From Nitrospirota bacterium (GTDB lineage Bacteria > Nitrospirota > JACRHJ01), in contig JACRHJ010000046.1 of the NCBI GenBank assembly GCA_016212105.1, positions 30,136 to 94,135 on the forward strand: 64,000 bases of DNA, written 5' to 3'. This document shows positions 27,273 through 64,000 of this stretch, piece by piece (the first letter of the stretch is position 1; each line of letters begins with the position of its first letter). A program made the translations under genes and the position numbers. The notes under the pieces are model-generated. The model was not told the origin of the DNA. It made no database searches and was given only the letters and a program-made list of their open reading frames with translations.

Positions 27273-27354
27273 TAAGGGGCCCGGGCGGGCAGTCCGGAAG
27301 CCGGGCGGTACTTGGGCTCCGGTTGCGAGAGAATACCCGTACCGCGGGTGATAC

Positions 27355-27431
27355 GCGCCTGTAGCTCAGTTGGATAGAGCAACGGATTCCGGTTCCGTGT
27401 GTCGGGAGTTCGAGTCTCTCCAGGCGCGCCA
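27355..27431 (+). tRNA. tRNA-Arg (anticodon CCG)
   Basis: Acceptor gcgcctg/caggcgc, anticodon stem acgga/tccgt with loop ttCCGgt, and CCA. Confidence 0.75.
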
Positions 27432-27448
27432 GATTTTGCTTTTTAGTT

Positions 27449-27475
27449 GTCATTCCCGCGAAAGCGGGAATCCAG
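27449..27475. repeat. REP-B palindrome copy (between tRNA-Arg and tRNA-Lys)
   Basis: gtcattcccgcgaaagcgggaatccag. Confidence 0.65.
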
Positions 27476-27497
27476 GGTTTATACAATATTTGAAGTT

Positions 27498-27573
<76 letters not shown>

Positions 27574-27804
27574 AAACTTATCAAGGGGTTAGGCGTTATC
27601 GCCTAACCCCTTTGTTGTTTCCGGTTGTTAATATAACCGAGTGCGGCCCTCAGTAATGAAAATGGCAGTTCACGGCTTACAAATTCCGCTAATTGCGCGT
27701 AAACGAGCAACGAGAAGAGCGTTATCGCTATGCATGTCGTACGATTCCATCATTAATTAGCTCCAATATCCTGTACTATATCGATTATCGTTTTATCGTT
27801 CTAC

Positions 27805-29493: not shown

Positions 29494-29578
29494 GACAGGC
29501 GATAAAGGATTACGAGATATACGGAACTGAACTTTCTGAGTTTTGAAGTTAACTTGTTAAGAGGCGAGGGAGGCTGGG

Positions 29579-35563: not shown

Positions 35564-35576
35564 GTCGTAGGGAGAA

Positions 35577-35607
35577 CCCCCTGGAGGCCGGTAACGGCCT
35601 CCAGGGG
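35577..35607 (+). terminator. strong stem-loop (cccctggaggccg-gtaa-cggcctccagggg) after cytochrome 2; no U-tract
   Basis: It is a perfect 13-bp stem. It is related to the stem-loop after cytochrome 3 (42241..42267), sharing the gaggccg-N3-4-cggcctc core. It may be an attenuator or an RNA-stability element rather than a full terminator. Confidence 0.4.
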
Positions 35608-35623
35608 TGAACTTATTCAGGTC

Positions 35624-35652
35624 TTGGGTATTGGCCGAAAATGTGCTATATT
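35624..35652 (+). promoter_or_regulatory. candidate extended -10 sigma-70 promoter (TTGGGT-N17-TGcTATATT) for the second giant cytochrome
   Basis: The extended -10 element aTGtGcTATATT lies at 35642..35652, about 120 nt upstream of the ATG at 35776. Confidence 0.3.
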
Positions 35653-35775
35653 CGGCCTTGTCCCTAGCCCTGAAAAGTGCGGACGCGGGGAGAAACTCCG
35701 CGTCCTTCTGGTTGCGTTATTCAATACGAGACCTTATATTTAATAGATATAGATTTTCCGCACACGGAGGAACCG

Positions 35776-50800: not shown

Positions 50801-51284
50801 CAGCATATAACGCCGGCCCACCGTCGCCGGAATATTTGCTGGGGGAAACGAAGTAATTTAGCCCCGCGATAGGTGTATAATTGCCGTTCGCGTCTATTTT
50901 GCTGATCATATTATTCAGGCTGTCAGCTATGTAGATATTTCCGGAACTGTCCACCGCAATATCTTCCGGATTGTACAATACCGTTGATAGATACTGACTT
51001 TCTCCTCTTGCTTCTTTTTCTGCCTGATAGTGAGGCGCTTCCAAGGTTGTGATAAACCCTTCCTTGTCCACCTTGCGGATGAGGTTATTGTCCGTATCTG
51101 CAATGTACATATTGCCGGCATTGTCGAAGGCTATGCCGTGCGGGTTGTTGAGGCTTGTCTTGGCGGCCTCGACCAGCCTTAGGCTGGCGTAAGGGTCCTT
51201 GACCGCGGTTGACTGTACCGGGCAGCAGGCGGTGAATGCCAGTACTGTAGATATTAGGATTGCTGCAACCGTAAGTCGCGTCAT
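47802..51284 (-). CDS. NHL-repeat beta-propeller protein, 1160 aa (probable lipoprotein)
   Basis: The N-terminus is AILISTVLAFTAC. It has multiple NHL repeats (GNMYIADTDNNLIRKVDKEGFITT..., GNLYIADTNNHRIRVIDKKGIINTVAG). Confidence 0.75.
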   Translation of the reverse strand: MTRLTVAAILISTVLAFTACCPVQSTAVKDPYASLRLVEAAKTSLNNPHGIAFDNAGNMYIADTDNNLIRKVDKEGFITTLEAPHYQAEKEARGESQYLSTVLYNPEDIAVDSSGNIYIADSLNNMISKIDANGNYTPIAGLNYFVSPSKYSGDGGPALYAELNSPEGVVVDSQGNIYIGDGGNSRVRKIDLNGIISTVAGDGSKGSSGDGGPATLAAIGWVKDIALDSGGNLYIACGDNIRKVDKAGIISTILYSGTIDHLWISDIDVDSSGNIYLADFGNHCVRVLTRHDILTLALVENSSTTKLNNGTEYKKSRFYIALDNKDALYFSLPTSHTVMRLETAGRMTVPMNRISRPDLVRTITVNEVHVEYPYNQQSWPGYVDRFGQIHFQSADNNDVREAVQRRSRLLRLGSDNSYARIAVVAGNGTPDYKDPATIVEPCTGLTLADLTKPVERNLNPTKLDSLKLLSTIEYPSGFAMDKNGNSYIVDGRKFRIVKLDKDGRAYVIAGNGLQGYCGDGGDALRARLGEPKDAALDSEGNLYFIDGNTIRMVDTDGVITTFAGGLHKDALKERGADPALVPLGDGGPAAFALLNRPSDIKMDTRGNLYIADTNNHRIRVIDKKGIINTVAGDGFMTKEKHYGRYEYVGRIAGDGGQATLASLNFPVAVSLDMLGNMFIADKENGRIRKVGNNGIITTVAGGGKFEDFEAHPEYKGGLPSALDLRFKPTSVTVDDDGNLYTTEYQECRILKIEPSGRTRNIADVRNGMESSLSYIVDQGVFHLGYQSVWRMDGDGRMSLFAGGEFRESKIVNGTQATKATMRIGGFAVDPAGNIFIAEDLGTPYKVWKVGPGGWLLGYAGCGCGGIVEENVRAIETCLKRPKQLACDRSGNLYLTDGRLIRMVDGKGIISTVAGREESEGISGDGGPATAAKISGGGSMYFSPAGELYMNGGDRVRKIDAKGTISSVIVRSGDCFKKADQIVDKDRRADRLYMDGISRYYPGDQRRPVVPVGSMAVDKAGNIYIIDGGCIYRIDPEYNCTLIAGIKGKSGFTSDGPGATAAFRDPVDIEVNSLGEVFVTDTGNFRIRKITADGIVSTVVGRGSCGYTGDGGPATEARLIKPVGIQFDAMDNMYIQDDNLIRKVDTKGMISTVAGMPEEPR

Positions 51285-51360: not shown

Positions 51361-52107
51361 TCAGAAGCGATAACCATCGTAACCTCTCTCGAACTCCCTG
51401 TCGGAAAGGCCTGGGTTGACCTTGAGATCTTTGTAGCCGTAGCTCTCAAGCAGCTCTCCCGACCAGCCGTAGACCATTATCTTCACCGGCAGGCGCAGGG
51501 CCTGGTCTTGCCATATCTCGGACCGTCGGGCATAGAAAACGCCCTTGCCGTCCGCCGGGGCCTCTACAACTATCAACCTGGCCGGCCTTCCGAACACTGT
51601 ACTGTCCATTACGGTTATCGTCCCTACACCGGCCTTCCTGGCCTTGCCGACCTCCCCGGTCACGATGTCCAGCATCCTGCCGATGCCGACGTCCGTGACC
51701 GGATGCCTGTTGCCTCTCATTGCGACCTTGCCGTCCGGGTCCAGGTTCATGACAATAGACCGGGTAAAGCCTCCGCCATGGGCAACCAGCCTGTTGCCGT
51801 TGGTACCGGTGGCGTACAGCAACTCGCGGCCCTCCCCAGGGCCCGGCAGCCATTTCATATAAATCTTGAACGGCTTCTTGAACTTCAGCTCGATGCTTTC
51901 GGCCGGAAGGAGTTTGCCGTCCACGCGTTCCTGTTTCTGGAAGTTCGCGGTATAGTCGGTCACGCGGGCATACGCCTCGCGCATCCGGTCGAGCTCCCTG
52001 ATGGCATCCTTGTCGAAAGACGCGCATGGCGAGACGCCGGGCCACAGGGCAAGGACTGCCGAGGCTGCGAGCAGGGCACGCATAATATAACTCATCATTT
52101 TATCCAT
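51361..52107 (-). CDS. DUF1571/LolA-like outer-membrane lipoprotein-sorting-like protein
   Basis: It has a signal peptide (ALLAASAVLALWPGVSPCA) and is about 230 aa, resembling the LolA-like fold family. It overlaps the upstream radical SAM gene by 13 nt. Confidence 0.45.
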   Translation of the reverse strand: MDKMMSYIMRALLAASAVLALWPGVSPCASFDKDAIRELDRMREAYARVTDYTANFQKQERVDGKLLPAESIELKFKKPFKIYMKWLPGPGEGRELLYATGTNGNRLVAHGGGFTRSIVMNLDPDGKVAMRGNRHPVTDVGIGRMLDIVTGEVGKARKAGVGTITVMDSTVFGRPARLIVVEAPADGKGVFYARRSEIWQDQALRLPVKIMVYGWSGELLESYGYKDLKVNPGLSDREFERGYDGYRF

Positions 52108-53273
52108 TCCATCAGCACGGGCAGGCCGTCTCCCCGGCAGCTCTTGATGATGTCGACCGCATCCGTCAACGACACTGGACGCGGGACGTTAGGGAAACCG
52201 TTCATATGCGAGGCGAGGCAGTGCCGCGACGGCGCTTCGATATTCGCGGAGAGACTGTCGAGGACCTCGCCGAGCCCCTCTGCGTACACGTTGCCGAACG
52301 AGACCGGGAGGAAGTCGCACGGGTAGACATCGCCGCCCGCGTTAATGTAGATAAAGGTATACCCGGCCTGGCATCCCAGGTAGTCCGGGCCTTCGAGCCG
52401 TGTCATTGTCGAGATGCGGACAGGAGCTCCTTTAATGCTCTGGCCGAGTCCCGGGTCGCGAAGCCTCATTTTCGTGTGTTCGGGAAGTTCTCTTGTTTTG
52501 GAACCTGTCCTGACCGGCATCGGGTCGAGGAGCAGTATCTCGTCCACACCGATGCTTCCGCAGAAGGATACGTACCGCTCCCATACGCCTTCGCTCAGCA
52601 ATTCCTCCGACGCGACCGCCTGCGCCGCCGTATGCACGCCGTATTTCTTGAACAGCCCCATAGCCCGGACGGCGTCATCAAAAGTGCCTGGCCGGTGCCT
52701 TGTATTGTCGTGCGACTCACGGTCGAAGTGGTCCAGGCTCACGAACGCCCGGCACAGTCCCGCACCTGCGAGCTGTGAGGCGCGGCCCGCGTCGAGCCCG
52801 ATGCCGGTAGTAAAGAGCGTGGTACATACCTCTTCGCCGCACAGCCCGACAATATCCACGAGGTCATCGCGAAGCAGGGGCTCGCCGCCTGTGAATGCGA
52901 CGCATGCTGTGCCCGCGTCCTTCAGCTCGGCAAGCAGCCTCCCGACCATCTCGAACGTCGGCTCGACGCGGCCAGAGGGAATGTTCGAGCACCGCTCGCA
53001 CCCGCAATCGCAGCGGTCTGTGAGGGAGATATGCGCCATGACCGGGACGCGCTCACCATGGGATACCCTTTTAAGGGAGTTCAGGTATCGGCCGAACGCG
53101 CGGCTCCCGACTGGCGGGGCCAGGTGGTGTATGTCTATCCCGTATCTCGTCCGAATCGGACGCGCGTCCCTCATGGACCTCCACATGGCGCGTGATATTG
53201 AAGGAGGCAGCGTCCATGCCTCGCGATGCCAGAGTGTGGCGAGCAGCATCCGTACGCGCCATGCGGTGTTCAT
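52095..53273 (-). CDS. radical SAM enzyme with C-terminal SPASM/twitch domain
   Basis: The radical SAM cluster is CDCGCERC (CX3CX2C), followed by GGEPLL. The SPASM start is GCQAGYTFIYINAGGDVYPCDF. Its ATGA start overlaps the aminotransferase stop. Confidence 0.8.
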   Translation of the reverse strand: MNTAWRVRMLLATLWHREAWTLPPSISRAMWRSMRDARPIRTRYGIDIHHLAPPVGSRAFGRYLNSLKRVSHGERVPVMAHISLTDRCDCGCERCSNIPSGRVEPTFEMVGRLLAELKDAGTACVAFTGGEPLLRDDLVDIVGLCGEEVCTTLFTTGIGLDAGRASQLAGAGLCRAFVSLDHFDRESHDNTRHRPGTFDDAVRAMGLFKKYGVHTAAQAVASEELLSEGVWERYVSFCGSIGVDEILLLDPMPVRTGSKTRELPEHTKMRLRDPGLGQSIKGAPVRISTMTRLEGPDYLGCQAGYTFIYINAGGDVYPCDFLPVSFGNVYAEGLGEVLDSLSANIEAPSRHCLASHMNGFPNVPRPVSLTDAVDIIKSCRGDGLPVLMEWIK

Positions 53274-54613
53274 AACGGCCGCCCGAGGACGCTCTTCATA
53301 AATGCGGACCCAGCCGCCGAGCCGAACGACGGGCAGGCAGTTAGCACCGTATCAAGCGTGGACGTAAACCTGTCCACATGCTCAGGACAGGCGACAAGCG
53401 GGGGCTCGGCCCGGAGGACGTTCGGCGAGAGAGTGCACGAATGGGACACGATGCCGTGGTCGCGCAGCAGGAGGGCGGCAATGACATGCGTGAACAGCCC
53501 GTCCCGCGCCCACGCTGGTACGGCCCTGGAAAGTACTCCCTCCGGCCGCGTGAACTCTATCCCCACGAGCAGCCCCTCTCCGTGGATGTCTGTGATTACG
53601 GTATGGCGGCGCTTGAGGCCGTCGAGTAACCCGGCAAGCCGGACGCCCATCTCGCGCGCGTTGTCCGGAAGCCTTTCGGCCTCGACTATACCGATAGTTT
53701 CAAGTCCCGCTGTCATCGCAAGGTGGCCGCCGGCAAACGTCGATGCGGTGAGCGTGCAGCGTTCCGGCCCGGTGAACGCGCGCTTCCATACGTCGCCGGT
53801 CATCAGCGTCGCCGCGACGGGGACCATGCCGCCCGAAAGCGCCTTGCCGACAACGAGCGCGTCGGGGATTACGTCGGCGAAGTCCGTGGCGAACATTCGG
53901 CCTGTCCGCCCGAGCCCGGTCTGTACCTCGTCTATGATTAACAGGCAGCCATGCCGGGCGCATATCCTGCTCGCCTCCTTCAGGTATCCTTCGGCAGGGA
54001 CTCGCATACCTCCCTCGGCCTGTACCGGCTCTACGATGAACGCGGCAGGCTTTAGCTTGCCGCAGGTGGCTTCGAGCGCGTCCAGGTCGTCGAACGGTAT
54101 GTGAGCGGACCACGATGGCAGCGGCCCGGCGAGGGCGCGTCTCTTCTCGTCGCCCATCAGCGGCAGCGTCCCGGTGGTCTGGCCATGGTAGCCGCCATCG
54201 CACGCAAGTATGACCTGTCTCCCGGTTGCCGCCCGCGCCGCGCGTACTGCGGTGTCGACCGCCTCCGCCCCGGAGTTGGCGAAGCTCACGCGGTCAAGCG
54301 CAGGGTGGGTGAGCCGGGTCAGTCTCTCGGCAAGCAGCCCGGCGGACAGCGGCGCGTCTACATTCAGCATCGAGGCCTGCCCATCCGCGAGGGAGGCCGT
54401 GAGTCTTTCGATGAGGCGCGGGTGGTTGTGGCCTATGTTGTGGACTCCGAATCCGGCGAGGAAGTCGGTATACACCCTGCCGGTATAGTCGGTCAGCTCC
54501 ATCCCGCGTGCACGGACGAACATACGGCCGTAGTCGAGCGCCTCGAGCATCCGGACAAGGTCCGGGTTGACGAACTTCCGGTATAGCTCGTGCGCCTTTT
54601 CCAGCTCGTTCAT
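53270..54613 (-). CDS. class III PLP-dependent aminotransferase (acetylornithine/omega-aminotransferase family)
   Basis: The protein is 447 aa. It carries the aminotransferase class III motif (...LIIDEVQTGLGRTGRMFA...). The PLP-binding lysine sits in GKALSGG. Confidence 0.8.
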   Translation of the reverse strand: MNELEKAHELYRKFVNPDLVRMLEALDYGRMFVRARGMELTDYTGRVYTDFLAGFGVHNIGHNHPRLIERLTASLADGQASMLNVDAPLSAGLLAERLTRLTHPALDRVSFANSGAEAVDTAVRAARAATGRQVILACDGGYHGQTTGTLPLMGDEKRRALAGPLPSWSAHIPFDDLDALEATCGKLKPAAFIVEPVQAEGGMRVPAEGYLKEASRICARHGCLLIIDEVQTGLGRTGRMFATDFADVIPDALVVGKALSGGMVPVAATLMTGDVWKRAFTGPERCTLTASTFAGGHLAMTAGLETIGIVEAERLPDNAREMGVRLAGLLDGLKRRHTVITDIHGEGLLVGIEFTRPEGVLSRAVPAWARDGLFTHVIAALLLRDHGIVSHSCTLSPNVLRAEPPLVACPEHVDRFTSTLDTVLTACPSFGSAAGSAFMKSVLGRPL

Positions 54614-56088
54614 CGCTTCAGCCTCGATACGGCGTCCGGGTAGATACTCTCCCAGGCCGCGTACCCCCCGTAGACCACGCGCACCCTAGGATGGCCGGCG
54701 TTGGCGAGCCGGTATCCGGCCTGGAACGAGAATATCCCCGTCCCGCACATGAGCACAACCTCTCTGTCCCAGGGTATCTGCTTGAAGTACCGCTCGAAGT
54801 ATATGTGCGACCACTCCTTCGCGCCCGGTATGCCTTCCTTCAGCATGCGCTCGTAAGGGAAACGGAGGTCTACGAGGAAGGTATCCGGCGACTCGATACG
54901 TTCGGCCGTCAGCTGTTGCGGGTCCATGTATGCGAACCCTGCCGGGTCGTGGGCGAGAACCTTTCCGAGTACCTTCAGGACGTAGCGCATGTCGGCCTCG
55001 GCCGTCGTCCTGCCCATGCTCATCCTTATCGAGGACAGCGCCTCCGCCTCGGACAGCCCCATGCCGATGAGCACATGCGATGGTTCGACGCGGTCTGCGG
55101 TACAGGCCGAGCCGATGGAGACGCAGACCTCATAGCAGTCGAGCCCGGCGAGAATGCGAATGTTCTCCCGGCCGGGGAACGTGAGGTTAATCGTCCCCGG
55201 GAGCTGAGAACCGGCGGGGGCATCGTTAACTATAATATCCGGGACAAGACTCCTGAGACCTTCGAGGAAATACTCGCGGAGCCTTGCAAGCCGTGCGAAA
55301 TCGCCCTCACGGCGCTCCGCCGCGAGCAAGGCCGCCCTGGCGAGTCCGGCAATCTGGTGCACACCCTCGGTCCCGGTGCGGAGCCCGCGCTCCTGGTCGC
55401 CTCCGCTTATGAGCGGGATGAGCTTCGCGCCGTCCCGGACGAAGATCGCGCCCGCGCCTTTCGGACCGTTTATCTTGTGCGCGGAGAGCGTGAGGTAGTC
55501 GCATCCGATGTCGTCAACATTTACACCAATCTTCCCGAACGACTGGACGGCGTCGGTGTGGAAGGGTATGCCCGCATCCCTGGCTATTTTGCCGATATCC
55601 TCGACAGGCTGCAGCGCGCCGGTCTCGTTGTTCGCGTGCATTACGGAAACGAGTATCGTGTCAGGACGTATAGCGGCCTTCACATCGACCGCCTTGACCA
55701 GCCCGTCCCGTCCCGCTGGCAGATAGGTTACGTCGCCGCCAGCGAGCTGCACCTGCTGGCACGCGCCGAGCACGGAGTCATGCTCTATGGCCGTAGTGAT
55801 GATGTGCCCCCGCCTGCCAGCGGCCTCGAAAACGCCCCTGATTACCGTGTTGTTGCCCTCGGTCCCGCCGGAGGTGAAATATATCTCCGAGGAGTTGCAC
55901 CCGAGTATCCCTGCAACCGTGTCCCGCGCGGTCTCCACGATGCCGCGCGCGTCCCGGCCCCTGGTATGAAGCGAAGACGGGTTGCCCCAGCGGCCTCGAA
56001 GGATTCGTGACATCTCCTCCGCGACTTCTTTTGCGACTGGTGTAGTCGCGTTGTGGTCCAGGTAAACCTGCCTTGGTATGTGGAACAT
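54610..56088 (-). CDS. cysteine desulfurase (NifS/IscS class V aminotransferase) fused to a C-terminal rhodanese domain
   Basis: The NifS N-terminus is YLDHNATTPV and the PLP lysine is in SAHKINGPKGAG. The active-site Cys loop is SIGSACTADR. The C-terminal rhodanese domain has the catalytic CGTG motif. Its ATGA start overlaps the aminotransferase gene. Confidence 0.8.
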   Translation of the reverse strand: MFHIPRQVYLDHNATTPVAKEVAEEMSRILRGRWGNPSSLHTRGRDARGIVETARDTVAGILGCNSSEIYFTSGGTEGNNTVIRGVFEAAGRRGHIITTAIEHDSVLGACQQVQLAGGDVTYLPAGRDGLVKAVDVKAAIRPDTILVSVMHANNETGALQPVEDIGKIARDAGIPFHTDAVQSFGKIGVNVDDIGCDYLTLSAHKINGPKGAGAIFVRDGAKLIPLISGGDQERGLRTGTEGVHQIAGLARAALLAAERREGDFARLARLREYFLEGLRSLVPDIIVNDAPAGSQLPGTINLTFPGRENIRILAGLDCYEVCVSIGSACTADRVEPSHVLIGMGLSEAEALSSIRMSMGRTTAEADMRYVLKVLGKVLAHDPAGFAYMDPQQLTAERIESPDTFLVDLRFPYERMLKEGIPGAKEWSHIYFERYFKQIPWDREVVLMCGTGIFSFQAGYRLANAGHPRVRVVYGGYAAWESIYPDAVSRLKR

Positions 56089-56097
56089 CTCACCGCC

Positions 56098-56730
56098 TCA
56101 GTAGATGTATGGTATGAACCTGTAACGGACGTCCGACATGTACTCGCGGTATCCGGACTTAGTCACGAGGAACCGCTCCTCGAGGACTGCGCGGTATACG
56201 TAGGCCGCGGACGATATTACGAACAGCGCGAATACCGCGGGTGCCGGGTGGCTGATGAGATACCCGGCGCGGAGCAGGATGTCCGTCCCGTACATGGGGT
56301 GGCGTACCACTGAGTACAGGCCCGTCCGCCTGACCTCCCGGTACGCGATGAGTATCCCGAAGCTCCGGCCGAGGTTGATGAGCGATATGAGCCCGAGCAC
56401 GTTCGCCGTCATGATGACCGTTTTCGAGACTGTAAGAGCGGCCTCCCCGGTGCTCTCCGCTGCGCCTGTAAAGAACACACCCGAGAAAAACGCCGCGAGC
56501 GCTACACCCTGATGAAGGACATTCCTGTCTACTGTGATGTGGTCTTTCCTGACGAGGATAAGCACGACCATGACGAGGTTCTGGAGCGTGAACGCGGCCT
56601 CGATGTAGTCGAACCTGCCCTCCCGCCATGCGGTGTACGCCTGATAGCCGAGCCAGCCGGCGAGGTTAACGAACAGGTATAAGTTGAACGCCTTCTGGCC
56701 GTGTCTGTCTATGAACTCGCGGAGCGTCAT
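56098..56730 (-). CDS. isoprenylcysteine carboxyl methyltransferase (ICMT/PEMT) family membrane methyltransferase
   Basis: The ATG at 56730 overlaps the upstream gene by 4 nt, and the track ORF is longer. It has 4-5 TM helices and the family motif VRHPMYG...EERFL. Confidence 0.6.
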   Translation of the reverse strand: MTLREFIDRHGQKAFNLYLFVNLAGWLGYQAYTAWREGRFDYIEAAFTLQNLVMVVLILVRKDHITVDRNVLHQGVALAAFFSGVFFTGAAESTGEAALTVSKTVIMTANVLGLISLINLGRSFGILIAYREVRRTGLYSVVRHPMYGTDILLRAGYLISHPAPAVFALFVISSAAYVYRAVLEERFLVTKSGYREYMSDVRYRFIPYIY

Positions 56731-58130
56731 CCCATAAACCTTGGGGTGTTGTTTCGGACGCAGGCCGGGAGGACGCGGCCGTCCGGCTGTGGGTAGCCCT
56801 GGCAGCAGCGCCTGACGCGGGCGATGTCGAACGTGTCCCTGTCCTGGAAGGCGTGTATGAAGATGGACTTGACCTTGCGCTCCATCATCGTGAACGCGGC
56901 CCTCGGGTCGAAGCAGCAGGCCGGCGCCTCCGACATCTCGCGCAGTATGCCGCGCAGCGCGGAGAGTACCGCCAGGCTCTCCGGCGCGGCGGCCACCGGG
57001 CCGGACCACAGGTCGTACACCATCTGCCTCAGGCGCGCGTGCTCATCGGGATCGAGCCCGTATACAACGCGGTTCGCGAGCGAGTCGAGCATGCCGTCCA
57101 TGTCCGCGAGCCTGGCGAAGGCCACCGCCTGCCCGCCTACGGTCATAAGGTAGAACGCGAGCGAGAAGCAGAGCGGGTGGCTGCACGGGAGCGGTATGAA
57201 GTCCTCGCGCGATACGAACGGTACGCCGGCCTCACCGATGAGCCGCGTGATGTCCGGTATGGTGAGCCGTCGCTCCTTGCCCGGCATGTCCTTAGCGCGG
57301 CCGGTGTAGGCGAGCGGCTGGACCATCAGGCTCACGATATTATCGTAACCGAAGAGGCAGCCGAGTATCTCCGGGAAGCGGTCGTCGTTTATGCCCGTTG
57401 CGGCCGTCATCACGAGCGAGGTAGTTACGTCCGCATCCTTCAATGTATCGAGTATCTCGCGCTTCTCGTACGCAAGTGGCCTTCCGCGAAGCTTTACGCA
57501 GACCTCGTCCGAGAACCCGTCGAGCTGCAGGGACACCACTACGTTTCTGGCCTTCAGCTCGCTCACGAGCGCTGGGTTGCGCAGAAGCCTCAGCCCGTTT
57601 GTCGAGATGCTTACACGCACTATCGCCTCGCGCGCGAGTGCCATGTCCACGATACGGAGGATGTCCTGGTGCAGGAGCGGTTCGCCGCCGGAGATGTTAA
57701 GGAGGTCTATCCTGCCTTCGGCCGCTACGAGCCTGTCGAGTATGCCGCCGAACTCATCCGGCGTCATGTCCCATGCCGAGCCGGCAGGCCCGCCAGACTC
57801 GTTGATGCAGATGGGGCATGCGAGGTCGCAGCGGGAGGTTATCTCTATAATCGGCATGCAGAGGTGCTGCTCGTGACGGGAGCAGTATCCGCATCCGTCC
57901 GGGCAAGGCGCGGACGCGTCTCCGTGCGCGGCCATCGGGACGGATGCGGGTTTGACGTACCTGAGCGTGCGCATATAATCGTCCGCGTCCGAGCGTATGA
58001 ACGCCCGCGACTCCCCGTGCTCCGGGCAGAACTTCAGCATGTGCACGTTCCCGCCGTCCTCGACGACCTTGGCCGGTGCTGGTTGTCCGCACTCCGCGCA
58101 GACAGACTGTGTAACAGTTATCAACCTCAT
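56727..58130 (-). CDS. radical SAM enzyme with N-terminal Cys-rich zinc-ribbon-like extension (paralog of 60885..62351)
   Basis: The ATG at 58130 gives MRLITVTQSVCAECG. The extension reads CX2C...CPEH then CPDGCGYCSRHEQHLC, and the radical SAM cluster is CDLACPIC, followed by GGEPLL. The conserved C-terminal tail is KSIFIHAFQDRDTFDIARVRRCC...DGRVLPAC. The track ORF is extended to 58538. Confidence 0.75.
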   Translation of the reverse strand: MRLITVTQSVCAECGQPAPAKVVEDGGNVHMLKFCPEHGESRAFIRSDADDYMRTLRYVKPASVPMAAHGDASAPCPDGCGYCSRHEQHLCMPIIEITSRCDLACPICINESGGPAGSAWDMTPDEFGGILDRLVAAEGRIDLLNISGGEPLLHQDILRIVDMALAREAIVRVSISTNGLRLLRNPALVSELKARNVVVSLQLDGFSDEVCVKLRGRPLAYEKREILDTLKDADVTTSLVMTAATGINDDRFPEILGCLFGYDNIVSLMVQPLAYTGRAKDMPGKERRLTIPDITRLIGEAGVPFVSREDFIPLPCSHPLCFSLAFYLMTVGGQAVAFARLADMDGMLDSLANRVVYGLDPDEHARLRQMVYDLWSGPVAAAPESLAVLSALRGILREMSEAPACCFDPRAAFTMMERKVKSIFIHAFQDRDTFDIARVRRCCQGYPQPDGRVLPACVRNNTPRFMG

Positions 58131-58132
58131 TA

Positions 58133-59158
58133 TCAGTATCTCCTGACGGAGCTGTAGAACTCGCGGAGCTGCCTGATGAGCGGCCTCTTTGTGATGCTCT
58201 CGGCGAAGCCCCTGCATGACGTCCAGCACTCGGAGCATGCCGAGGTGCGCTGCAGGTCCTCGAGTTTGGCGCGGATGTCGTCCATGTCCTCGATCAGTAT
58301 GTTCCCGGCCGGGCTGTCGAGCATCTCTGTGCACCTCGCCACACGGCCCATGTTGTCTATGTTCATCATCAGCCGTCCGGCCTGGCATCTGCCGACCCCG
58401 CCGGTCTCGATCGCCTCGTCGAGCCGCTCTATGTACGACGTAAGCGTCACGAACTCCGGGTATCTCTTCTTGAGCGAGAGCAGGCGTGCCGCGACCTTGT
58501 CCTCCGGGAGCCTGCGCGTCTTCACGCCTCTGTTCCACGAGTACAGGCTCAGCATGTACGTCACGCCGAGCTTGCGCGAAAGCAGCAGCAGCGGCTCTAC
58601 CTCATCGAGGTTGTCGTCCATCAGGACGCTTATCATGTGGACGCGCCTCCGGTTGTCCCTGCGCGCGCGGTTGAGTGTGTCGAGCGCGGAAACAGCACGC
58701 TCCCACGCCCCGTCCATGCCGCGCATCGTGTCGTGCCGCTTCGGGTCGGCATAGTCGAGTGAGACGGATATCTCCTGTAAACCAGCCACGGATAGCTCCT
58801 CGGCGAGATCCGGTGTCACGTGCCAGCCGTTAGTGATGAGTATAGGGAAGTGGCCCTTCGCGTTCAGTATCCGTATTATATCAGGAAGGTCTTCCCGGAT
58901 GAGCGGCTCACCGCCGGCAAGCGATATGATAAACGTTCCGTAGCGTGCAAGCTTGTCGCCGATAACACGTATGTCGTCGAGTGACAGCTCTTCTTCCGCC
59001 TTGTGTTTCGTCTTCCAGAAGTCGCAGATGCTGCACCGGAACTGGCAGCGGTACGTCACCTGCAGGTTGCAGTAGATGAGCCTGCGCGTGGCGAAGCCCG
59101 CGAGCAGGCTCCCGCAGCGCCTCTGGTAGTGGAGTTCTTGTTTTATGGAATATAGCAT
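58133..59158 (-). CDS. radical SAM enzyme with SPASM/twitch-like C-terminus
   Basis: The ATG at 59158 gives MLYSIKQ. The radical SAM cluster is CQFRCSIC, followed by GGEPLI. The C-terminal Cys motif is CQAGR...RCTE...CSECWTSC. Its stop abuts the start of the downstream gene. Confidence 0.75.
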   Translation of the reverse strand: MLYSIKQELHYQRRCGSLLAGFATRRLIYCNLQVTYRCQFRCSICDFWKTKHKAEEELSLDDIRVIGDKLARYGTFIISLAGGEPLIREDLPDIIRILNAKGHFPILITNGWHVTPDLAEELSVAGLQEISVSLDYADPKRHDTMRGMDGAWERAVSALDTLNRARRDNRRRVHMISVLMDDNLDEVEPLLLLSRKLGVTYMLSLYSWNRGVKTRRLPEDKVAARLLSLKKRYPEFVTLTSYIERLDEAIETGGVGRCQAGRLMMNIDNMGRVARCTEMLDSPAGNILIEDMDDIRAKLEDLQRTSACSECWTSCRGFAESITKRPLIRQLREFYSSVRRY

Positions 59159-59270
59159 AATGATAAAGGATATAACCCCGCCTTCTTGTAAGAAGGCGGC
59201 CCAAGAACTTTTGGGCTGCACCAGCGGATATGCGTGAAACGCTACGCAATAGGCCGGAGGCGGCATAAAA

Positions 59271-59311
59271 GTTTTCGGGCCGCCCTTTTACAAAAGGGCG
59301 GGACTTGTTGG
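59271..59311 (+). promoter_or_regulatory. Palindromic ~40-nt motif copy inside the radical SAM operon (gttttcgggccgcccttttacaaaagggcgggacttgttgg)
   Basis: It is a perfect 10-nt inverted repeat, ccgccctttt AC aaaagggcgg. A second hairpin (ccccgccttct-tgta-agaaggcggc, 59177..59200) lies next to it, between two minus-strand genes. Confidence 0.4.
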
Positions 59312-59319
59312 CAGTGCCG

Positions 59320-60330
59320 TTATCTTCTCCCCGCGAACCGGGAGTCCTCTCGCATAGCCGAAACCGGGTGTGCCTGGAACATCGTCAGTCCCATGTGGCA
59401 GAATATGTGGCACCTGCCGGAGCAGTCCGGTATGCCGCCATAAGACTTACGCGCGGTCGTGAGCGCTGCCTCGTAGCCGCCGCGCTCCAGCACGCTCTCG
59501 TCCGCCCGCTTGAACTCCAGGCACGGGTAGTAGAGCCTCCCGTCCGGCCTTATGGCAGGCATGAGGAGGGGTGCGCACCTGAACTCGCGGAAGTATCTGA
59601 TCCCGTCGAGATACTCAGGTACTCCCAGCACTCCGGACCGCGTCTTCTTGGCATCGAGGACCTTCGACATCAGCCGGTCGTAGACAGGGTTGTCTCTAAG
59701 CGCCGGGTTCACGGACCTCCCGGTTATATCCGGCGATATATGGAAACCGAGCCTGTTTTCGAGCGCAAAACCGAGGACGTCAGCGACGTCGTCGAGGTTG
59801 GCGGGCGTCGCCACTGCGCTTAAAACCAGTGCGGTACCCGCATCCGCCGCCGTACGCACCGAGTATTCGAGGCTGTCGAGTATCCCGCGCGCCGCTGTTT
59901 TATTACCGGTGAGGGCCGTAAGTCTGTCCTCGTCGAGCGAGTCCACGCTCAGTACGAGGACGTTGGCCAGCCCGATTATTTCTTTACGTGACTCGAGCCC
60001 GATGCCCTTCGTGTTGAGGACAGTCGCCATCCCTGCGTGTCTTGCATGGGCGAGCACTTCCTCGATGTCGTCCCTTTCGAGCGGCTCTCCGCCGGTAATG
60101 TCGAGCGTGTCCGCGGAGCGGGCAAGCATCCCGACAAGCCTTTTAGCGTCTTCGGTCGACAGCTCATCCACGACATCCTCGCGGAAGCTTGCGCCATCGC
60201 CGTCGGAGCAGTATGCGCACCGGAGCCCGCAGCGGTGGGTTATGTAGTACGAGAAAAGCAGCGGCCGGGACGGCCTGCGCCCCACGGCGACGGAGATCAG
60301 ATTAAGGGCGTAGTTGAGCGCCGAGCCCAT
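59320..60330 (-). CDS. radical SAM enzyme with SPASM/twitch-like C-terminus
   Basis: The radical SAM cluster is CGLRCAYC, followed by GGEPLE. The C-terminal Cys motif is YYPCLEF...CSGRCHIFCH. Confidence 0.8.
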   Translation of the reverse strand: MGSALNYALNLISVAVGRRPSRPLLFSYYITHRCGLRCAYCSDGDGASFREDVVDELSTEDAKRLVGMLARSADTLDITGGEPLERDDIEEVLAHARHAGMATVLNTKGIGLESRKEIIGLANVLVLSVDSLDEDRLTALTGNKTAARGILDSLEYSVRTAADAGTALVLSAVATPANLDDVADVLGFALENRLGFHISPDITGRSVNPALRDNPVYDRLMSKVLDAKKTRSGVLGVPEYLDGIRYFREFRCAPLLMPAIRPDGRLYYPCLEFKRADESVLERGGYEAALTTARKSYGGIPDCSGRCHIFCHMGLTMFQAHPVSAMREDSRFAGRR

Positions 60331-60331
60331 G

Positions 60332-60892
60332 TCAGTCTTTACCCTTTAGGCTCTTTGCGGGCACGCCGCCGACGGAGTCATCGTCCGGAACGTCCCGGTT
60401 CACGAAGCTGTTGAACCCGACGTTCGCGCGCTCGCCTATGGTTACCCCGCACCGTACGGTCGAGAAGCCGCCTAAAACGGAATGCTTTCCTATGCGCACG
60501 CGGCCAAGCCTGAACTCCTTGACCGAGTACTCGTGCGTCATGACGCGCGAGCCGATACCGAGCAGGACGCCGTCCTCCAGCTCGATGAGCTGCGGGTACA
60601 GCGGGTCGATGTACGTCTCGGGCGATATGTACACGTCCCTGCCTATCCTCGCGCCCAGCAGCCTGAGCAGGGATACCTTTACGGACGATAAAGGCACGGC
60701 GTTCACGAACCACATGACGACGAGACGTATGCCGATGACGAGGTCCGGGCCGTGGCCTGTGAATATTGTCTCGCAGACGCAGTACCGCTCAGAGCGCGGT
60801 ACGACGAAAGGCTCGGAGCGGTCGCCCGCGAGCCACTCAGTGAGCGCGGCCCTGTGTCTGGCTACAGCCGACTTGTCTTCCGGGCTAAGCAT
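60332..60892 (-). CDS. hexapeptide-repeat (LbH) acyl/acetyltransferase
   Basis: It has left-handed beta-helix repeats (IGRDVYISPETYIDPLY...IGSRVMTHEY...IGKHSVLGGFSTVRCGVTIGERANVG). Confidence 0.7.
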   Translation of the reverse strand: MLSPEDKSAVARHRAALTEWLAGDRSEPFVVPRSERYCVCETIFTGHGPDLVIGIRLVVMWFVNAVPLSSVKVSLLRLLGARIGRDVYISPETYIDPLYPQLIELEDGVLLGIGSRVMTHEYSVKEFRLGRVRIGKHSVLGGFSTVRCGVTIGERANVGFNSFVNRDVPDDDSVGGVPAKSLKGKD

Positions 60893-62351
60893 GGAACCTC
60901 TCGTCCTTCATCCGGTGGAAGAGGTTATAGGTGCAGGCCGGTATCAGCCTGCCGGGCTCGGAGGGGACAAGGTCCGGGCAGAGCATCGCGCGCGCGCAGT
61001 CGAAGCTGTCCTCGTCCATGTGCGCGTGCACATATACCGTCCTGACGGAGGACTCCGCGAGCCGCTGCCGCATGAAAGGGCTTATCCTGCCCTCGTCAGG
61101 GTACAGCCGCTTTATCAGCTCCCGGAAAGCCTTCATGTGCACCTCGTCGCCCTTCGCGTAGAGCTCATTGATTATCTCGCGGAAGAAGTCCGCCCTGTCG
61201 TCAAGACGCATCAGGTAAGAGTCCGCCATGAACGACATGAGCGTCTCGGCCGGCGCGAACCGCGCGAACGGGTGGAACTTCCTGCCGGACTTCATCATGT
61301 AGCAGGTGAGGTAGCATAGCGGGTGCGCGGACGGCCTGGGGAGGAAGTCCGTGAACTCCAGCATACCGCCTGAGCCCGCCGCGACGAGCTTCGCGGCCTC
61401 GTCCACGGGTATGTGCGCGCGGCCCTCGACCGTCCCGCCGCCCTGGCCGGTGTAGGTCATCGTCTGGACTATCAGGCTAAGTATGCTGTCGTTCTCCAGC
61501 ATCAGGCCGAGTATGCCGCTGGTGGCGTCCTCGTTCACGCCGCGCATCATGACGTTCAGGAGCGTTATCCTCGCGCCCGCGCGTGTCAGGTTGTCTATAG
61601 CGCGGAGCTTTGTATCGACCACGTCCGCACCGTGCATGACCTTCGACGCCGCAGGGTCGAACGTGTTGAACGACAGGTTCACGTATACTCCAAGGTCGGC
61701 GATCCTTCTGCACAAGTCCATGTCGCGCGAGAGACGGAGCCCGTTGGAGTTCATCATGACGCGCCCGACCTCCTGGCGTTTGCAGCAGGCGAGTATCCCG
61801 AGTATGTCCGGGTGGAGCGCCGGCTCGCCGCCGGTAATGTCTATGAGGTCCACGCTGCCGGACGACTCGATAATCCAGTCCACGGTGCGGCGCATCTCGT
61901 CCACCGGCATGTAGTACTTCCTGTCCTGCCGGTTGTACGTGAAGCATATAGGGCAGCGCATCTCGCAGTCGTTCGTTATGGATATGACAGGGAGCTGACA
62001 GGGAGATGCGTGCCATGTGCACGGGCCGCAGTCGTGCGGACAGCCGCGCATCGGTGGATGCGAATGGCCGGCGGGCGAGCTGTCGGCGAACGGCCCCTGA
62101 CAGCTACTGAGGTACCAGTCCACGTCCGAGGCTATCATGGCGGGCTCGCCCTCGCCGCACCTGCATAACGACTGCTGCCAGACCTTGCCGTCCCGGAAGA
62201 AGACGCGCGCGGGCACGACCTCGCGGCAGGAGCGGCAGACGCCCCGGACCGTTGTGAAGTAAGTGTAGTCCCTGGTCTCAAGCACCGGCGTATATCTCCC
62301 GCCAGAGCGTCTCGCGTCCGGATGCGTCTTCCATGTCATGCAGGTCCGCAA
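60885..62351 (-). CDS. radical SAM enzyme with N-terminal Cys-rich zinc-ribbon-like extension (paralog of 56727..58130)
   Basis: The extension reads CRSC...CRCGEG then CPHDCGPCTWHASPC, and the radical SAM cluster is CEMRCPICF, followed by GGEPAL. The C-terminal tail is RTVYVHAHMDEDSFDCARAMLC...GRLIPAC. The start is uncertain because the 5' end overlaps the upstream hotdog gene. Confidence 0.75.
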   Translation of the reverse strand: MRTCMTWKTHPDARRSGGRYTPVLETRDYTYFTTVRGVCRSCREVVPARVFFRDGKVWQQSLCRCGEGEPAMIASDVDWYLSSCQGPFADSSPAGHSHPPMRGCPHDCGPCTWHASPCQLPVISITNDCEMRCPICFTYNRQDRKYYMPVDEMRRTVDWIIESSGSVDLIDITGGEPALHPDILGILACCKRQEVGRVMMNSNGLRLSRDMDLCRRIADLGVYVNLSFNTFDPAASKVMHGADVVDTKLRAIDNLTRAGARITLLNVMMRGVNEDATSGILGLMLENDSILSLIVQTMTYTGQGGGTVEGRAHIPVDEAAKLVAAGSGGMLEFTDFLPRPSAHPLCYLTCYMMKSGRKFHPFARFAPAETLMSFMADSYLMRLDDRADFFREIINELYAKGDEVHMKAFRELIKRLYPDEGRISPFMRQRLAESSVRTVYVHAHMDEDSFDCARAMLCPDLVPSEPGRLIPACTYNLFHRMKDERFHA

Positions 62352-62736
62352 GCGTGAAAGATAATGTCCCGGCGGCGACTTGCGCGCCGGATATGGCCGC
62401 CACTGAGCATTCGGCTATAAAAGAGCCTTTAGACACCTCTACTGGACGCACCTCGATTATCAGCGCATCGCCAATCCCCGGCTTGCCCGGCGATGCGGCG
62501 AACGTCATCTCCGATACTCCATCCAGCAGGCATGTCTTCTCGAACCGCGTACTTGCGGAAGCCAGCCAGCGTGCGGCGGATACGCAGCACTCCATGACAA
62601 GGCTCACCGGGAAGGCCCCCTTCAGGCCGAACGGCTTCAGAAGGCTGTACTCCTCGAGGCTGACCGTCTTCCTGCACCTGACGGCCTTCCATGACTCGAA
62701 GCTCTCTACTCTGTCAGTGAACCTCCAGCGCATCAT
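62278..62736 (-). CDS. hotdog-fold dehydratase (FabA/FabZ-like)
   Basis: The protein is 152 aa. Its N-terminal RWRFTDRVESFE resembles the FabZ LxDRV region. Its position in the operon is ACP-KR-DH. Confidence 0.45.
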   Translation of the reverse strand: MMRWRFTDRVESFESWKAVRCRKTVSLEEYSLLKPFGLKGAFPVSLVMECCVSAARWLASASTRFEKTCLLDGVSEMTFAASPGKPGIGDALIIEVRPVEVSKGSFIAECSVAAISGAQVAAGTLSFTLADLHDMEDASGRETLWREIYAGA

Positions 62737-63446
62737 ATACCGCCGTTCACGTGTATGCTCTGGGCGTTTATGTACGATGCCCTGTCGGAGGCGAGGAAGA
62801 GGGCGACCTCCGCAACCTCCTCCGGCTCTCCGGGCCTGCCTGCCGTGCAGTAGTTGAGGTACTCCTTCATCTCTTTCTCGGGCACGAGGGTGCCGACGCC
62901 CTTGGACAAAAGCCCCGGCACAATCTCGTTCACGCGGATGCCGAAGCGCGCGAGCTCCATGGCGAGCGCGGTCGTGAAGCCGGACACGGCCGCCTTTGCC
63001 GCGGCGTAGTGCACCGGCACCTCGAGGAGCCTGTGGCCCGCAATCGAGCCGATGTTGATTATGACGCCCGAACGGCGCGATATCATGGAGCGGGCCGCCT
63101 CCTTGCTCGCGAGGAACATGGGCTTGAGGTTCGCGGCGATGACCTCGTCCCAGTCCTCCTCCTCGATGAGCGCGAACGGCATCACCTGCGTCCGGCCGAC
63201 GGTGTTCACGAGGACGTCTATGCCGCCGAAACGTCCCGTAACGTCCTCGACCAATCTCGCAACACCCGCGCCTTTTGTCAGTTCGGCCTTGAACGCCAAG
63301 GCGCCCGTCACGGCTTCGAGTTGCCGTGCGGCCTCCTCGCCGTTCCGGTACGTGAACGCGACGGAGTATCCCTCGCGGGCGAACGCGCGGACGACCGCGC
63401 CGCCCACCGCTCCGCTCCCTCCGGTGACAAGCGCGGTCTTAGGCAT
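62733..63446 (-). CDS. short-chain dehydrogenase/reductase (FabG-like 3-oxoacyl-ACP reductase)
   Basis: The NAD(P)-binding motif is TGGSGAVGGAV. The catalytic Y...K is YAAAKAAV. The C-terminal motif is SIHVNGG. Confidence 0.8.
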   Translation of the reverse strand: MPKTALVTGGSGAVGGAVVRAFAREGYSVAFTYRNGEEAARQLEAVTGALAFKAELTKGAGVARLVEDVTGRFGGIDVLVNTVGRTQVMPFALIEEEDWDEVIAANLKPMFLASKEAARSMISRRSGVIINIGSIAGHRLLEVPVHYAAAKAAVSGFTTALAMELARFGIRVNEIVPGLLSKGVGTLVPEKEMKEYLNYCTAGRPGEPEEVAEVALFLASDRASYINAQSIHVNGGI

Positions 63447-63837
63447 GTCCTGCCTCCTTTAGCCTGGCGACAATGTTGACGAACGTCGCAACTCGGAACG
63501 TGCGCGGAAGCGCGGCGGCATGGAGCCCGTCGTGGAGCTCCTCCGGAGGCACCTCCGGGAGCGCGGCCCTTAGCTCTGCGAGCGCCTCCGGCGTGTATAT
63601 ACCGTCAACCTCGAAAGCCGCGCCGCCGAGCCTCTCACGCGCGCGGCGCTCAATGTCCCTGGGTGAAATCTTTATACTGAACCGTTGCTCGAGCTGGAAT
63701 ACCAGGTCGAGCAGGTCGAGCGAGTCCGCGCCGAGGTCGCCGATAATCCTCGCGTCCTCAGACACGCAGGATGCGTCCATGTCCAGCACCTTCGACAGGC
63801 TCTCGCGTACTCCGGCCTGTATCTCATCTCTCGTCAT
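63439..63837 (-). CDS. acyl carrier protein with C-terminal extension
   Basis: The phosphopantetheine attachment motif is DLGADSLDLLDLV. The protein is 132 aa, longer than a canonical ACP. Confidence 0.65.
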   Translation of the reverse strand: MTRDEIQAGVRESLSKVLDMDASCVSEDARIIGDLGADSLDLLDLVFQLEQRFSIKISPRDIERRARERLGGAAFEVDGIYTPEALAELRAALPEVPPEELHDGLHAAALPRTFRVATFVNIVARLKEAGHA

Positions 63838-64000
63838 CTATTATCCTCGTATAGTCGTCAACAGGTTTTCTCTCCGGGGCAGCGGGAGTCTCTGCCGGGT
63901 ATCCGAGCGCGACCAGGCAGACTATTTCGAAGCGTCCTCCGACACCGGCAATCTTCTTCAGCCTGTCTCCCGCCGCGAGCGGGCCGGTCAGGCAGCATGT
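63823..64000 (-). CDS. partial gene, possibly nitroreductase-family C-terminus (runs off window end)
   Basis: Minus-strand translation ends ...IVCLVALGYPAETPAAPERKPVDDYTRIIDDER*, and an LGYP ending is typical of nitroreductases. It overlaps the ACP start by about 15 nt. Confidence 0.25.

Follow-up and report, generated by a model that had tools for sequence, protein, structure and literature searches.

What the operon at one end of this stretch of DNA produces is the question that the locus raises. The window, 64,000 nucleotides from a Nitrospirota bacterium (assembly GCA_016212105.1, contig JACRHJ010000046.1, positions 30,136 to 94,135), carries on its minus strand, from 64000 to 52095, a packed series of genes that encode an acyl carrier protein (ACP), chain-building enzymes, and five radical S-adenosylmethionine (SAM) enzymes, here called A to E. 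We conclude that the operon belongs to a widespread family of ACP-dependent lipid or polyketide clusters with radical SAM tailoring, for which no characterized counterpart was found. Most likely, the operon makes a new membrane lipid that is cyclized, bridged, and/or sulfur bearing. We give a probability of roughly one-half to a pathway in which lipid synthesis tethered to ACP would be followed by carbon-carbon or carbon-sulfur bond formation resembling that of tetraether synthase (Tes), together with methylation, a sulfur relay, and an amination step in this genome.

How far the operon extends was answered by near-identical contigs. The exact ACP sequence is present on four public contigs. 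One of them (L001; JACRQC010000069.1, from the Nitrospirota metagenome-assembled genome [MAG] GCA_016222885.1) is 99.88% identical to the window over 10.6 kb, and a Logan contig (L002) is 100% identical over 4.7 kb. The 13 differences between L001 and the window (5 synonymous, 7 nonsynonymous, and 1 intergenic) are too few to be informative. In the direction of transcription, from 64000 to 52095, the window holds a truncated nitroreductase gene and 13 packed genes. Directly upstream of the nitroreductase gene and in the same orientation, L001 and L002 add genes for hyp152 (a 152-amino-acid protein with four transmembrane segments), FabZ, a chain length factor (CLF), a ketosynthase (KS), and FabG. 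The window holds the downstream two-thirds of an ~16-kb minus-strand operon of ~20 genes. A gap of ~300 bp and a gene for a FadL/BamG-like outer membrane protein precede the first gene of the operon. Scans for promoters and terminators at both operon ends gave results at the level of chance.

The first-pass annotation of the window, made from its letters alone, stands in much of this. Pfam and NCBIfam searches recovered every gene class that it had named at the coordinates given here, on the minus strand. It had also expected the operon to continue past 64000 to a KS, and a 411-amino-acid KS and a 319-amino-acid CLF do lie there, although 64000 proves to be the upstream, 5′ side. Pseudogenization of the radical SAM genes had been named as a possible objection. 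Reading frames are uninterrupted throughout the operon, none of the five radical SAM genes is damaged, and the CX3CX2C motif and the auxiliary or C-terminal cysteines of A to D are 92 to 100% conserved among 25 to 39 homologs from other phyla (the comparison for E comprises 3 homologs only). Thus, as judged by frames and motifs, the genes of the operon are functional and not pseudogenes. Adjacent genes overlap by 4 to 14 nucleotides or are separated by spacers of 1 to 9 nucleotides, with a single exception upstream of the gene for C, where the spacer is 53 to 161 nucleotides long depending on the choice of start codon.

The operon does not stand alone. A profile built from homologs of radical SAM D (A1), run on a species-representative genome collection, gave 43 loci in which tblastn and all-against-all clustering recovered the genes of the operon in conserved order, at amino acid identities of 30 to 70%. 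Most of the loci belong to Planctomycetota (Pirellulales, Gemmataceae, Thermoguttaceae, and Phycisphaerae) and to Victivallales, including MAGs of Victivallis vadensis, and others are labeled Elusimicrobiota, Deltaproteobacteria/Desulfobacterales, Leptospiraceae, and Pseudomonadota. Sumerlaeota-labeled homologs were found as well. The carriers are MAGs, and their labels represent seven or more bacterial phyla. When a Pirellulales homolog was used as the query to look for cultured carriers, metagenomic proteins were all that was returned. Eighteen loci counted as well covered, the gene for D being flanked by 9 kb or more upstream and 5 kb or more downstream. The ACP, a short-chain dehydrogenase/reductase (SDR), and radical SAM enzymes A and D are present in all 18; 17 have FabZ, CLF, KS, and the nitroreductase; and a hotdog-fold protein is present in 16. 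Less constant are a left-handed beta-helix (LbH) acyltransferase (14/18), radical SAM C (13/18), radical SAM B (11/18), a NifS-rhodanese fusion (6/18), a PEMT-type methyltransferase (5/18, and 16 of all loci), and an aminotransferase with radical SAM E (3/18). The long ACP, the SDR, and A and D, which are paralogous radical SAM enzymes, make up the invariant core.

The core enzymes A and D are full-length relatives of Tes, a likeness that, together with the wide distribution, the first-pass annotation had overlooked. Radical SAM D (56727 to 58130) matches Pfam Zn_ribbon_HMPTM (53 bits) and Radical_SAM, and phmmer aligns it over its full length to GDGT-MAS of Methanocaldococcus jannaschii (MJ0619, PDB 7TOL; E = 1.4e-47). 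An AlphaFold2 (AF2) model of D (predicted TM score [pTM], 0.81) superposes on 7TOL and 7TOM with TM scores of 0.77 to 0.78, and the next fold scores 0.38. The four-domain layout of Tes, a rubredoxin-like iron site and three [4Fe-4S] sites, is found in D, and at all four sites, taken as described in PMC13459092, the ligands are invariant in 39 sequences: C11, C14, C35, and H38 at the rubredoxin-like site; C76, C80, and C83 with a histidine at the N-terminal cluster; C101, C105, and C108 at the radical SAM cluster; and C442, C443, and C457 at the C-terminal cluster. The family of D also has two invariant cysteines (PLPCSHPLC) that are absent from GDGT-MAS, and it comprises at least 1,475 protein clusters at an E value of ≤1e-50. 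Radical SAM A (60885 to 62285; Pfam Radical_SAM) is a paralog of D, 29% identical over the full length. Its homology to the Tes layout is likewise full length, with a Cys4 zinc ribbon or rubredoxin-like N terminus (Zn_ribbon_HMPTM at 24.3 bits, below the cutoff of 27), core cysteine ligands conserved in 38 sequences, and a C-terminal cysteine spacing that differs from that of D.

Relationship to Tes does not place A and D within a named family. The best-scoring curated model for both enzymes, again over the full length, is TrsS (NF045646), at 249.6 bits for D and 166.2 bits for A against a cutoff of 490. The Tes model (NF045702) gives 216.4 and 162.9 bits against a cutoff of 450, below half in each case. 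By these scores, A and D lie outside the curated Tes and TrsS families. For TrsS, a literature search gave one table entry in a selenoproteome review, with no function described. SPASM/twitch C termini had been assigned to three of the five radical SAM enzymes. B and C have twitch-like C termini with five cysteines, E has a SPASM match, and A and D end in a Tes-type C-terminal cluster domain.

The chemistry of Tes offers a model for what A and D could do. In Tes, the 5′-deoxyadenosyl radical takes a hydrogen atom from a terminal sp3 carbon, and a sulfide of the C-terminal cluster captures the resulting substrate radical, with an adduct of added sulfur appearing when SAM is limiting (PMC13459092). 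The carbon-carbon bond forms when the sulfur is then displaced by a second radical (PMC13459092). One explanation of the operon is close at hand, namely, that the Tes-like enzymes couple the tails of two acyl chains into a bacterial membrane-spanning lipid of the diabolic acid or branched glycerol dialkyl glycerol tetraether (brGDGT) type and that the fatty-acid-synthase-like genes supply the chains. D shares the architecture of GDGT-MAS, Tes homologs are frequent in Planctomycetota MAGs and have been proposed as potential brGDGT synthases (PMC8941075; PMC11868695), and a gene for an APP1-type phosphatidate phosphatase adjoins the cluster in one locus (L008). We nevertheless consider a tail-to-tail coupling of this kind unlikely. 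The Tes scores of 216 and 163 bits fall far short of 450. Moreover, Tes and Mss act on membrane lipids that are already complete and do without a private ACP, KS/CLF, nitroreductase, or rhodanese, and two Tes-like paralogs with two further radical SAM enzymes exceed what one coupling would need. Finally, no ether lipid genes (Ger/PlsA or Elb) were identified among the cluster genes and the accessory neighbors examined.

How the chain is built is suggested by the genes on either side of the nitroreductase. The ACP (63439 to 63837; Pfam PP-binding, 38.8 bits) is 132 amino acids long. The serine of its DSL motif is invariant (32/32 sequences), and a C-terminal extension of ~60 amino acids is conserved across phyla. 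At an E value of ≤1e-10 there are 397 protein clusters of this long ACP, of which the best 120 are 130 to 160 amino acids long and 57 to 100% identical. Clusters of the long ACP and of D-type enzymes are almost all metagenomic. In an AF2 model (pLDDT, 91.5), extension and core form one compact domain, of which only the first ~63 residues, the ACP core, superpose on ACPs in the PDB. We note that the ACP belongs to a distinct long subfamily of ~132 amino acids, the extension of which is predicted to pack on the core and has no solved structural counterpart.

The condensing enzymes have the features of a competent KS paired with a CLF. In the KS, the Cys-His-His triad is invariant (27/27 sequences), and the FabF equivalog score is 346 against a cutoff of 494. 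The CLF lacks the active-site cysteine and has in its place an invariant P-W-E within T/N-P-W-E. Two ketoreductases (KRs) accompany the pair. The upstream FabG scores 263 bits with TIGR01830 (cutoff, 298) and passes the subfamily model PRK12826.1-2 (256 against 222), and the second KR of the operon, the FabG-like SDR of the window (62733 to 63446; Pfam adh_short_C2, 1e-51), scores 194 bits with TIGR01830. The upstream FabZ (157 amino acids) retains His and Glu and is canonical, with scores of 113 against 155 (TIGR01750) and 112 against 113 (PRK00006). The hotdog protein of the window (62278 to 62736) matches NCBIfam FabZ at an E value of 5e-6 (26 bits; cutoff, 113). It had been called a dehydratase (DH), and the fold is there, but the position of the catalytic His is P, R, or A in 25 of 25 homologs, with the Glu kept in 21; the Escherichia coli FabZ sequence served as a guide only, and the result rests on the homologs. 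The nitroreductase-family flavoprotein, of which the window holds the C-terminal 58 codons (63824 to 64000, running off the edge), is complete on L001 (L001:9403-10014; 203 amino acids). Its NCBIfam matches are to BluB (71 bits; cutoff, 150) and to the C-terminal domain of FbiB (51 bits), and its best relatives in the PDB are the nitroreductase 4DN2 and a BluB-like protein. The cutoffs of the canonical type II fatty acid synthase (FAS) equivalogs (FabF, FabG TIGR01830, and FabZ) were not reached by the proteins of the operon.

A KS/CLF heterodimer with KR, DH, and ACP and without a dedicated enoyl reductase is also what a polyene pigment of the aryl polyene or flexirubin kind, made by a highly reducing type II polyketide synthase (PKS) and tailored by radical SAM enzymes, would require. 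The upstream FabZ has an ApeI-like precomputed Pfam match, and both SDRs match FlxB below the cutoff (221 and 148 against 340 bits). A pigment seems quite improbable to us, however, as the invariant partners here are radical SAM enzymes and as the nitroreductase-type flavoprotein could itself be an enoyl reductase. Moreover, an aryl-starter ligase, a glycosyltransferase, a LolA/MMPL export set, and DarA/B were not identified among the cluster genes and accessory neighbors examined, in a comparison that included no aryl-polyene-specific set of hidden Markov models.

We favor instead a pathway that ends in a modified lipid. On the long ACP, KS/CLF with KR and DH would assemble a chain whose length is defined, with malonyl loading being borrowed from housekeeping FAS and enoyl reduction being either borrowed or carried out by the nitroreductase-type flavoprotein. 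A and D would then abstract hydrogen from unactivated sp3 carbons of the ACP-built chain, and the radical would be trapped, as in Tes, on a sulfide of the C-terminal [4Fe-4S] cluster. The trapped radical could go on to a carbon-carbon bond, closing a ring or bridge within or between chains, or the carbon-sulfur bond could be retained as a thiolation. B and C might perform further radical chemistry at C-H bonds. A persulfide relay through the rhodanese would feed sulfur, either to rebuild the sacrificed cluster or to enter the product. The LbH protein may transfer an acyl or acetyl group, and the PEMT protein may methylate the membrane-embedded product. Finally, in the Nitrospirota variant, E could oxidize a position that a PigE-like transaminase would turn into an amine. 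The first-pass annotation had proposed a bridged, aminated, or thiolated lipid or else an aminocyclitol-like metabolite; a bridged or thiolated lipid is still the best reading, but amination is accessory only (3/43 loci), and for an aminocyclitol there is no evidence.

A membrane character of the pathway is supported by several of its proteins and by neighbors of lipid type. Transmembrane segments are predicted in hyp152, the LbH protein, and the PEMT protein, and accessory neighbors in other loci include, besides a B12 radical SAM enzyme, the APP1-type phosphatidate phosphatase and a CrtC/Svf1-like lipocalin. The LbH (hexapeptide) acyl- or acetyltransferase (60332 to 60892; Pfam Hexapep) has one predicted transmembrane helix. 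Its best NCBIfam match is heptaprenylglyceryl-phosphate O-acetyltransferase (78 bits; cutoff, 300), and its relatives in the PDB are O- and N-acetyltransferases. The polytopic methyltransferase of the PEMT/ICMT superfamily (56098 to 56730) scores 31 bits with Pfam PEMT (cutoff, 25) and 19 bits with ICMT, has conserved RHPMY and EERFL motifs and at least three hydrophobic segments, and matches weakly MddA, a thiol S-methyltransferase of the superfamily. An ICMT-type membrane methyltransferase had been predicted and is present, but a carboxyl acceptor is unsupported, and we found no evidence for methyl esterification.

The putative sulfur relay varies among the loci. In the window, it is a fusion of a NifS/IscS-type cysteine desulfurase to a rhodanese (54610 to 56088; Pfam Aminotran_5, 240 bits, and Rhodanese, 37 bits). 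The catalytic Cys329 is present in 16 of 16 sequences, the rhodanese Cys448 is 94% conserved, the HK motif is present, and the NifS model TIGR03402 gives 408 bits against an equivalog cutoff of 531. The desulfurase-rhodanese fusion of the first-pass annotation, which would mobilize sulfur, is present in this genome but is not universal. A rhodanese-domain gene is found in 14 of the 18 well-covered loci, as the NifS fusion in 6 and in 8 as a membrane fusion of ~435 amino acids, in which an N-terminal rhodanese with an invariant active-site Cys is joined to a Cys-rich polytopic membrane domain. We note that this rhodanese-membrane family, which replaces the NifS fusion in one variant (L024:11390-12697), has invariant cysteines at positions 223, 274, 280, 283, and 291; has homologs in L010, L011, L016, L021, L022, L027, L030, L032, L041, L043, and L046; and has no Pfam or NCBIfam assignment beyond the N-terminal rhodanese.

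The conserved relay invites a different product, a soluble sulfur-containing cofactor or metabolite made by a logic like that of lipoate or biotin, in which radical SAM enzymes would place sulfur drawn from NifS-rhodanese on a short ACP-bound acid that would then be methylated and here aminated. The catalytic Cys of the relay is conserved, clusters of the Tes type can donate sulfur (PMC13459092), the methyltransferase has its MddA match, and the class III aminotransferase matches the BioA family at 196 bits. Such a product is rather improbable in our judgment. The BioA cutoff is 405, and models of BioF, BioD, BioB, and LipA were missing from the 25 top NCBIfam matches shown for each protein of the operon. 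Moreover, several of the enzymes are membrane embedded, the aminotransferase is accessory, and KS/CLF with two KRs and two DHs suggests multiple rounds of elongation.

Of the remaining radical SAM enzymes, B (59320 to 60330) and C (58133 to 59158, or from an alternative ATG at 59266), both ~340 amino acids and both matched by Pfam Radical_SAM, have twitch-like C termini with five cysteines. In B, C34/38/41 and C252/270/303/307/311 are at least 96% conserved in 25 sequences, and relatives in the PDB (PqqE and MoaA) are remote only. In C, all 27 sequences compared have C38/42/45 and C258/276/308/311/315, and the best PDB relative is SkfB (6e-13). E (52095 to 53273; Pfam Radical_SAM, 65 bits, and SPASM, 29 bits) has BlsE as its closest solved relative (1.4e-12) and has homologs in L013, L021, and L046 only. 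A BtrN-type dehydrogenase was considered for E and rejected for want of direct support.

Sub-threshold matches of B, C, and E to PqqE, MftC, and sactipeptide maturases raise the maturation of a ribosomally synthesized and posttranslationally modified peptide (RiPP) or of a peptide-derived cofactor like mycofactocin or pyrroloquinoline quinone (PQQ). The scores are at most 84 against 265 for MftC, at most 72 against 381 for PqqE, and at most 62 against 625 for StsB. The genes overlap or abut; thus, no room is left for a precursor peptide reading frame. The conserved partners, moreover, are FAS/PKS enzymes and an ACP, and we give peptide maturation next to no credence. Models of the mycofactocin, PQQ, sactipeptide, heme d1, biotin, and lipoate pathways all scored far below their cutoffs, and the operon is none of these. 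The expectation that the operon would match no characterized fatty acid, polyketide, RiPP, or cofactor pathway has held, as all equivalog cutoffs were missed. Nor is a product assigned by any curated equivalog model, by any solved structure, or by any paper that could be searched, and full-text literature searches returned no description of this combination of genes.

The aminotransferase belongs with E and not with the core. The two genes occur together in 3 of the 43 related loci, always as a pair, and are an accessory pair. The class III (omega-type) aminotransferase (53270 to 54613; Pfam Aminotran_3, 278 bits) has as its closest relative the aminotransferase domain of PigE, of the MAP pathway of prodigiosin (PDB 4PPM, E = 4.9e-77), followed by putrescine aminotransferases, and scores 398 bits with the PigE model against a cutoff of 850. 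Likeness to PigE suggests transamination of a lipid aldehyde or ketone. Unlike PigE, the protein comprises the aminotransferase half only, has a SPASM radical SAM enzyme as its partner, and is accessory to its cluster.

Several points weigh against the lipid pathway that we favor. Every step past the presence and conservation of genes is read from family membership, and all equivalog cutoffs were missed. Thus, substrates cannot be transferred from the named families. B, C, the LbH protein, and the PEMT protein are frequent but fall short of universal. The operon has neither a thioesterase nor a glycerolipid acyltransferase that would indicate a route by which the chain is released from the ACP, and the product may be a soluble small molecule. 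No rhodanese gene lies within 10 kb in 4 of the 18 well-covered loci, and thus the pathway may either dispense with sulfur delivery or receive it in trans. The NifS fusion, moreover, could simply load the ~10 Fe-S clusters of the pathway. The rhodanese-membrane fusion, found in half of the variants, may fit membrane-associated sulfur delivery better than general Fe-S assembly, though this is uncertain.

A bolder form of the lipid pathway would bear on geochemistry. Perhaps the Tes-like pair acts on a chain held by its private long ACP and not on finished lipids, and the rhodanese-fed cluster installs carbon-sulfur and/or carbon-carbon bonds, giving a new class of bacterial lipids, sulfur bearing or else carbocyclic or bridged, in the PVC superphylum, Nitrospirota, Desulfobacterota, Elusimicrobiota, and spirochaetes. 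We hold this only tentatively and think it somewhat doubtful. If it is true, some of the "bacterial Tes homologs" taken as signs of brGDGT producers in metagenomes represent this unrelated pathway. The presence of Tes homologs, in Planctomycetota as in other bacteria, is currently taken to mark production of brGDGTs, and the genomic context here (a private ACP, KS/CLF, and a sulfur relay) argues that at least this Tes-like subfamily does something other than brGDGT synthesis. The family is widespread, with more than 1,400 protein clusters of the signature enzyme and locus labels from seven phyla. Moreover, the gene set is compact, defined, and of expressible size, which should help in asking whether auxiliary clusters of the Tes type donate sulfur.

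Genes beside the operon do not travel with it. The start of a gene for a secreted DUF1571 protein (51361 to 52107, minus strand; Pfam DUF1571, 164 bits, with a weak MucB/RseB, LolA-like match) overlaps the stop of the gene for E by 13 nucleotides, which couples it translationally to the operon. None of the 43 loci has a DUF1571 homolog beside the cluster; the protein is specific to this genome and lies outside the conserved cluster. The FadL-like outer membrane protein, a candidate exporter, is not conserved with the cluster in related loci either. Both proteins were considered as exporters of the cluster and were rejected on this ground. Two NHL/SBBP beta-propeller proteins of 749 and 1,160 amino acids, with ScyF-like matches, follow the DUF1571 gene (45727 to 51284, minus strand) and likewise are not conserved with the cluster in other genomes.

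The rest of the window has features of its own, all on the plus strand. Three consecutive multiheme c-type cytochromes of 550, 1,994, and 2,183 amino acids are encoded at 27841 to 42228. The first has 8 CXXCH motifs, the second has 32 of them and 12 CXXXXCH, and the third has 28 of them and 7 CXXXXCH, with an MtrC/MtrF-like domain match. The two giant genes share DNA that is 77 to 82% identical (30525 to 31131 with 36758 to 37358 and 37834 to 38211 with 38938 to 39312). The trio looks like an extracellular electron transfer module of the Nitrospirota MAG. Eight tRNA genes lie at 22807 to 27574, with tRNA-Glu at 22807, tRNA-Val at 24641, and an array of six (Pro-TGG, Arg-TCT, His-GTG, Arg-TCG, Arg-CCG, and Lys-CTT) at 26750 to 27574. 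Between tRNA genes is a sixth radical SAM gene (25230 to 26489; 419 amino acids), unlinked to the operon. Finally, a type ISP restriction-modification enzyme of 1,160 amino acids, with N6_Mtase and a Type_ISP_C specificity domain, is encoded at 14810 to 18292.

How the operon compares with known systems depends on which of its parts is considered. Its ingredients resemble Cluster I of anammox bacteria, which has a special ACP, FabZ, an active and an inactive FabF (FabF/FabF-mut, like KS/CLF), and radical SAM enzymes, and antiSMASH would probably give a ladderane label to such a cluster of KS, ACP, and radical SAM genes. Clusters of that "ladderane" type, of unknown function, occur in many nonanammox phyla (PMC9902471), and papers on them gave no description at the level of genes. 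Two related loci are labeled "Ca. Kuenenia stuttgartiensis" (L007, DYIT01000051.1) and "Brocadiaceae" (L037, CAYYNS010000001.1), and their GC content is 61 to 62%. Anammox genomes are at ~40 to 45% GC. Thus, the bins or their taxonomic labels are probably wrong. The cluster was found in no locus with an anammox-like GC content, the 43 loci are mostly nonanammox, and most carriers belong to groups without reported ladderanes (PMC9902471). Moreover, Cluster I (KustE3603-3608) holds a phytoene dehydrogenase homolog and a B12-binding radical SAM enzyme (Rattray 2009; 2026 amxFabF preprint; 2026 review), neither of which was found among the operon genes, and the operon has instead Tes-like paralogs, a nitroreductase, LbH and PEMT proteins, and a rhodanese relay. 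The anammox clusters of these sources, which contain PDH, PCL, GT, and B12 radical SAM genes, were rejected as a different gene set, and we regard a ladderane pathway as very improbable.

Highly reducing type II PKSs, such as those of aryl polyenes, ishigamide, and the Amc system of cispentacin, share with the operon only KS/CLF, a FabG-type KR, a FabZ-type DH, and a stand-alone ACP. Operon proteins match AmcB, AmcE, AmcF, and FlxB below the cutoffs, there is no starter unit ligase, and the defining partners are four or five radical SAM enzymes. Sulfur insertion by LipA and BioB, with cysteine desulfurase as the supplier, is like the proposed pathway in its radical SAM enzymes with auxiliary clusters, which here lie beside a NifS/rhodanese source of persulfide, and in an ACP-bound substrate. 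The likeness does not extend to homology beyond the radical SAM core, and incorporation of sulfur would here be a matter of analogy. TrsS, to which A and D score best among the curated models, is a radical SAM (seleno)protein, and A and D contain no selenocysteine. Tes and GDGT-MAS share with D, and more distantly with A, the rubredoxin-like Cys3His ribbon, the N-terminal CX3CX2C with its histidine, the radical SAM CX3CX2C, and the C-terminal CC...C. Tes stands alone and takes finished isoprenoid diethers as its substrate, whereas D has bacterial carriers and is encoded within an operon that also specifies ACP, KS/CLF, and a putative sulfur relay.

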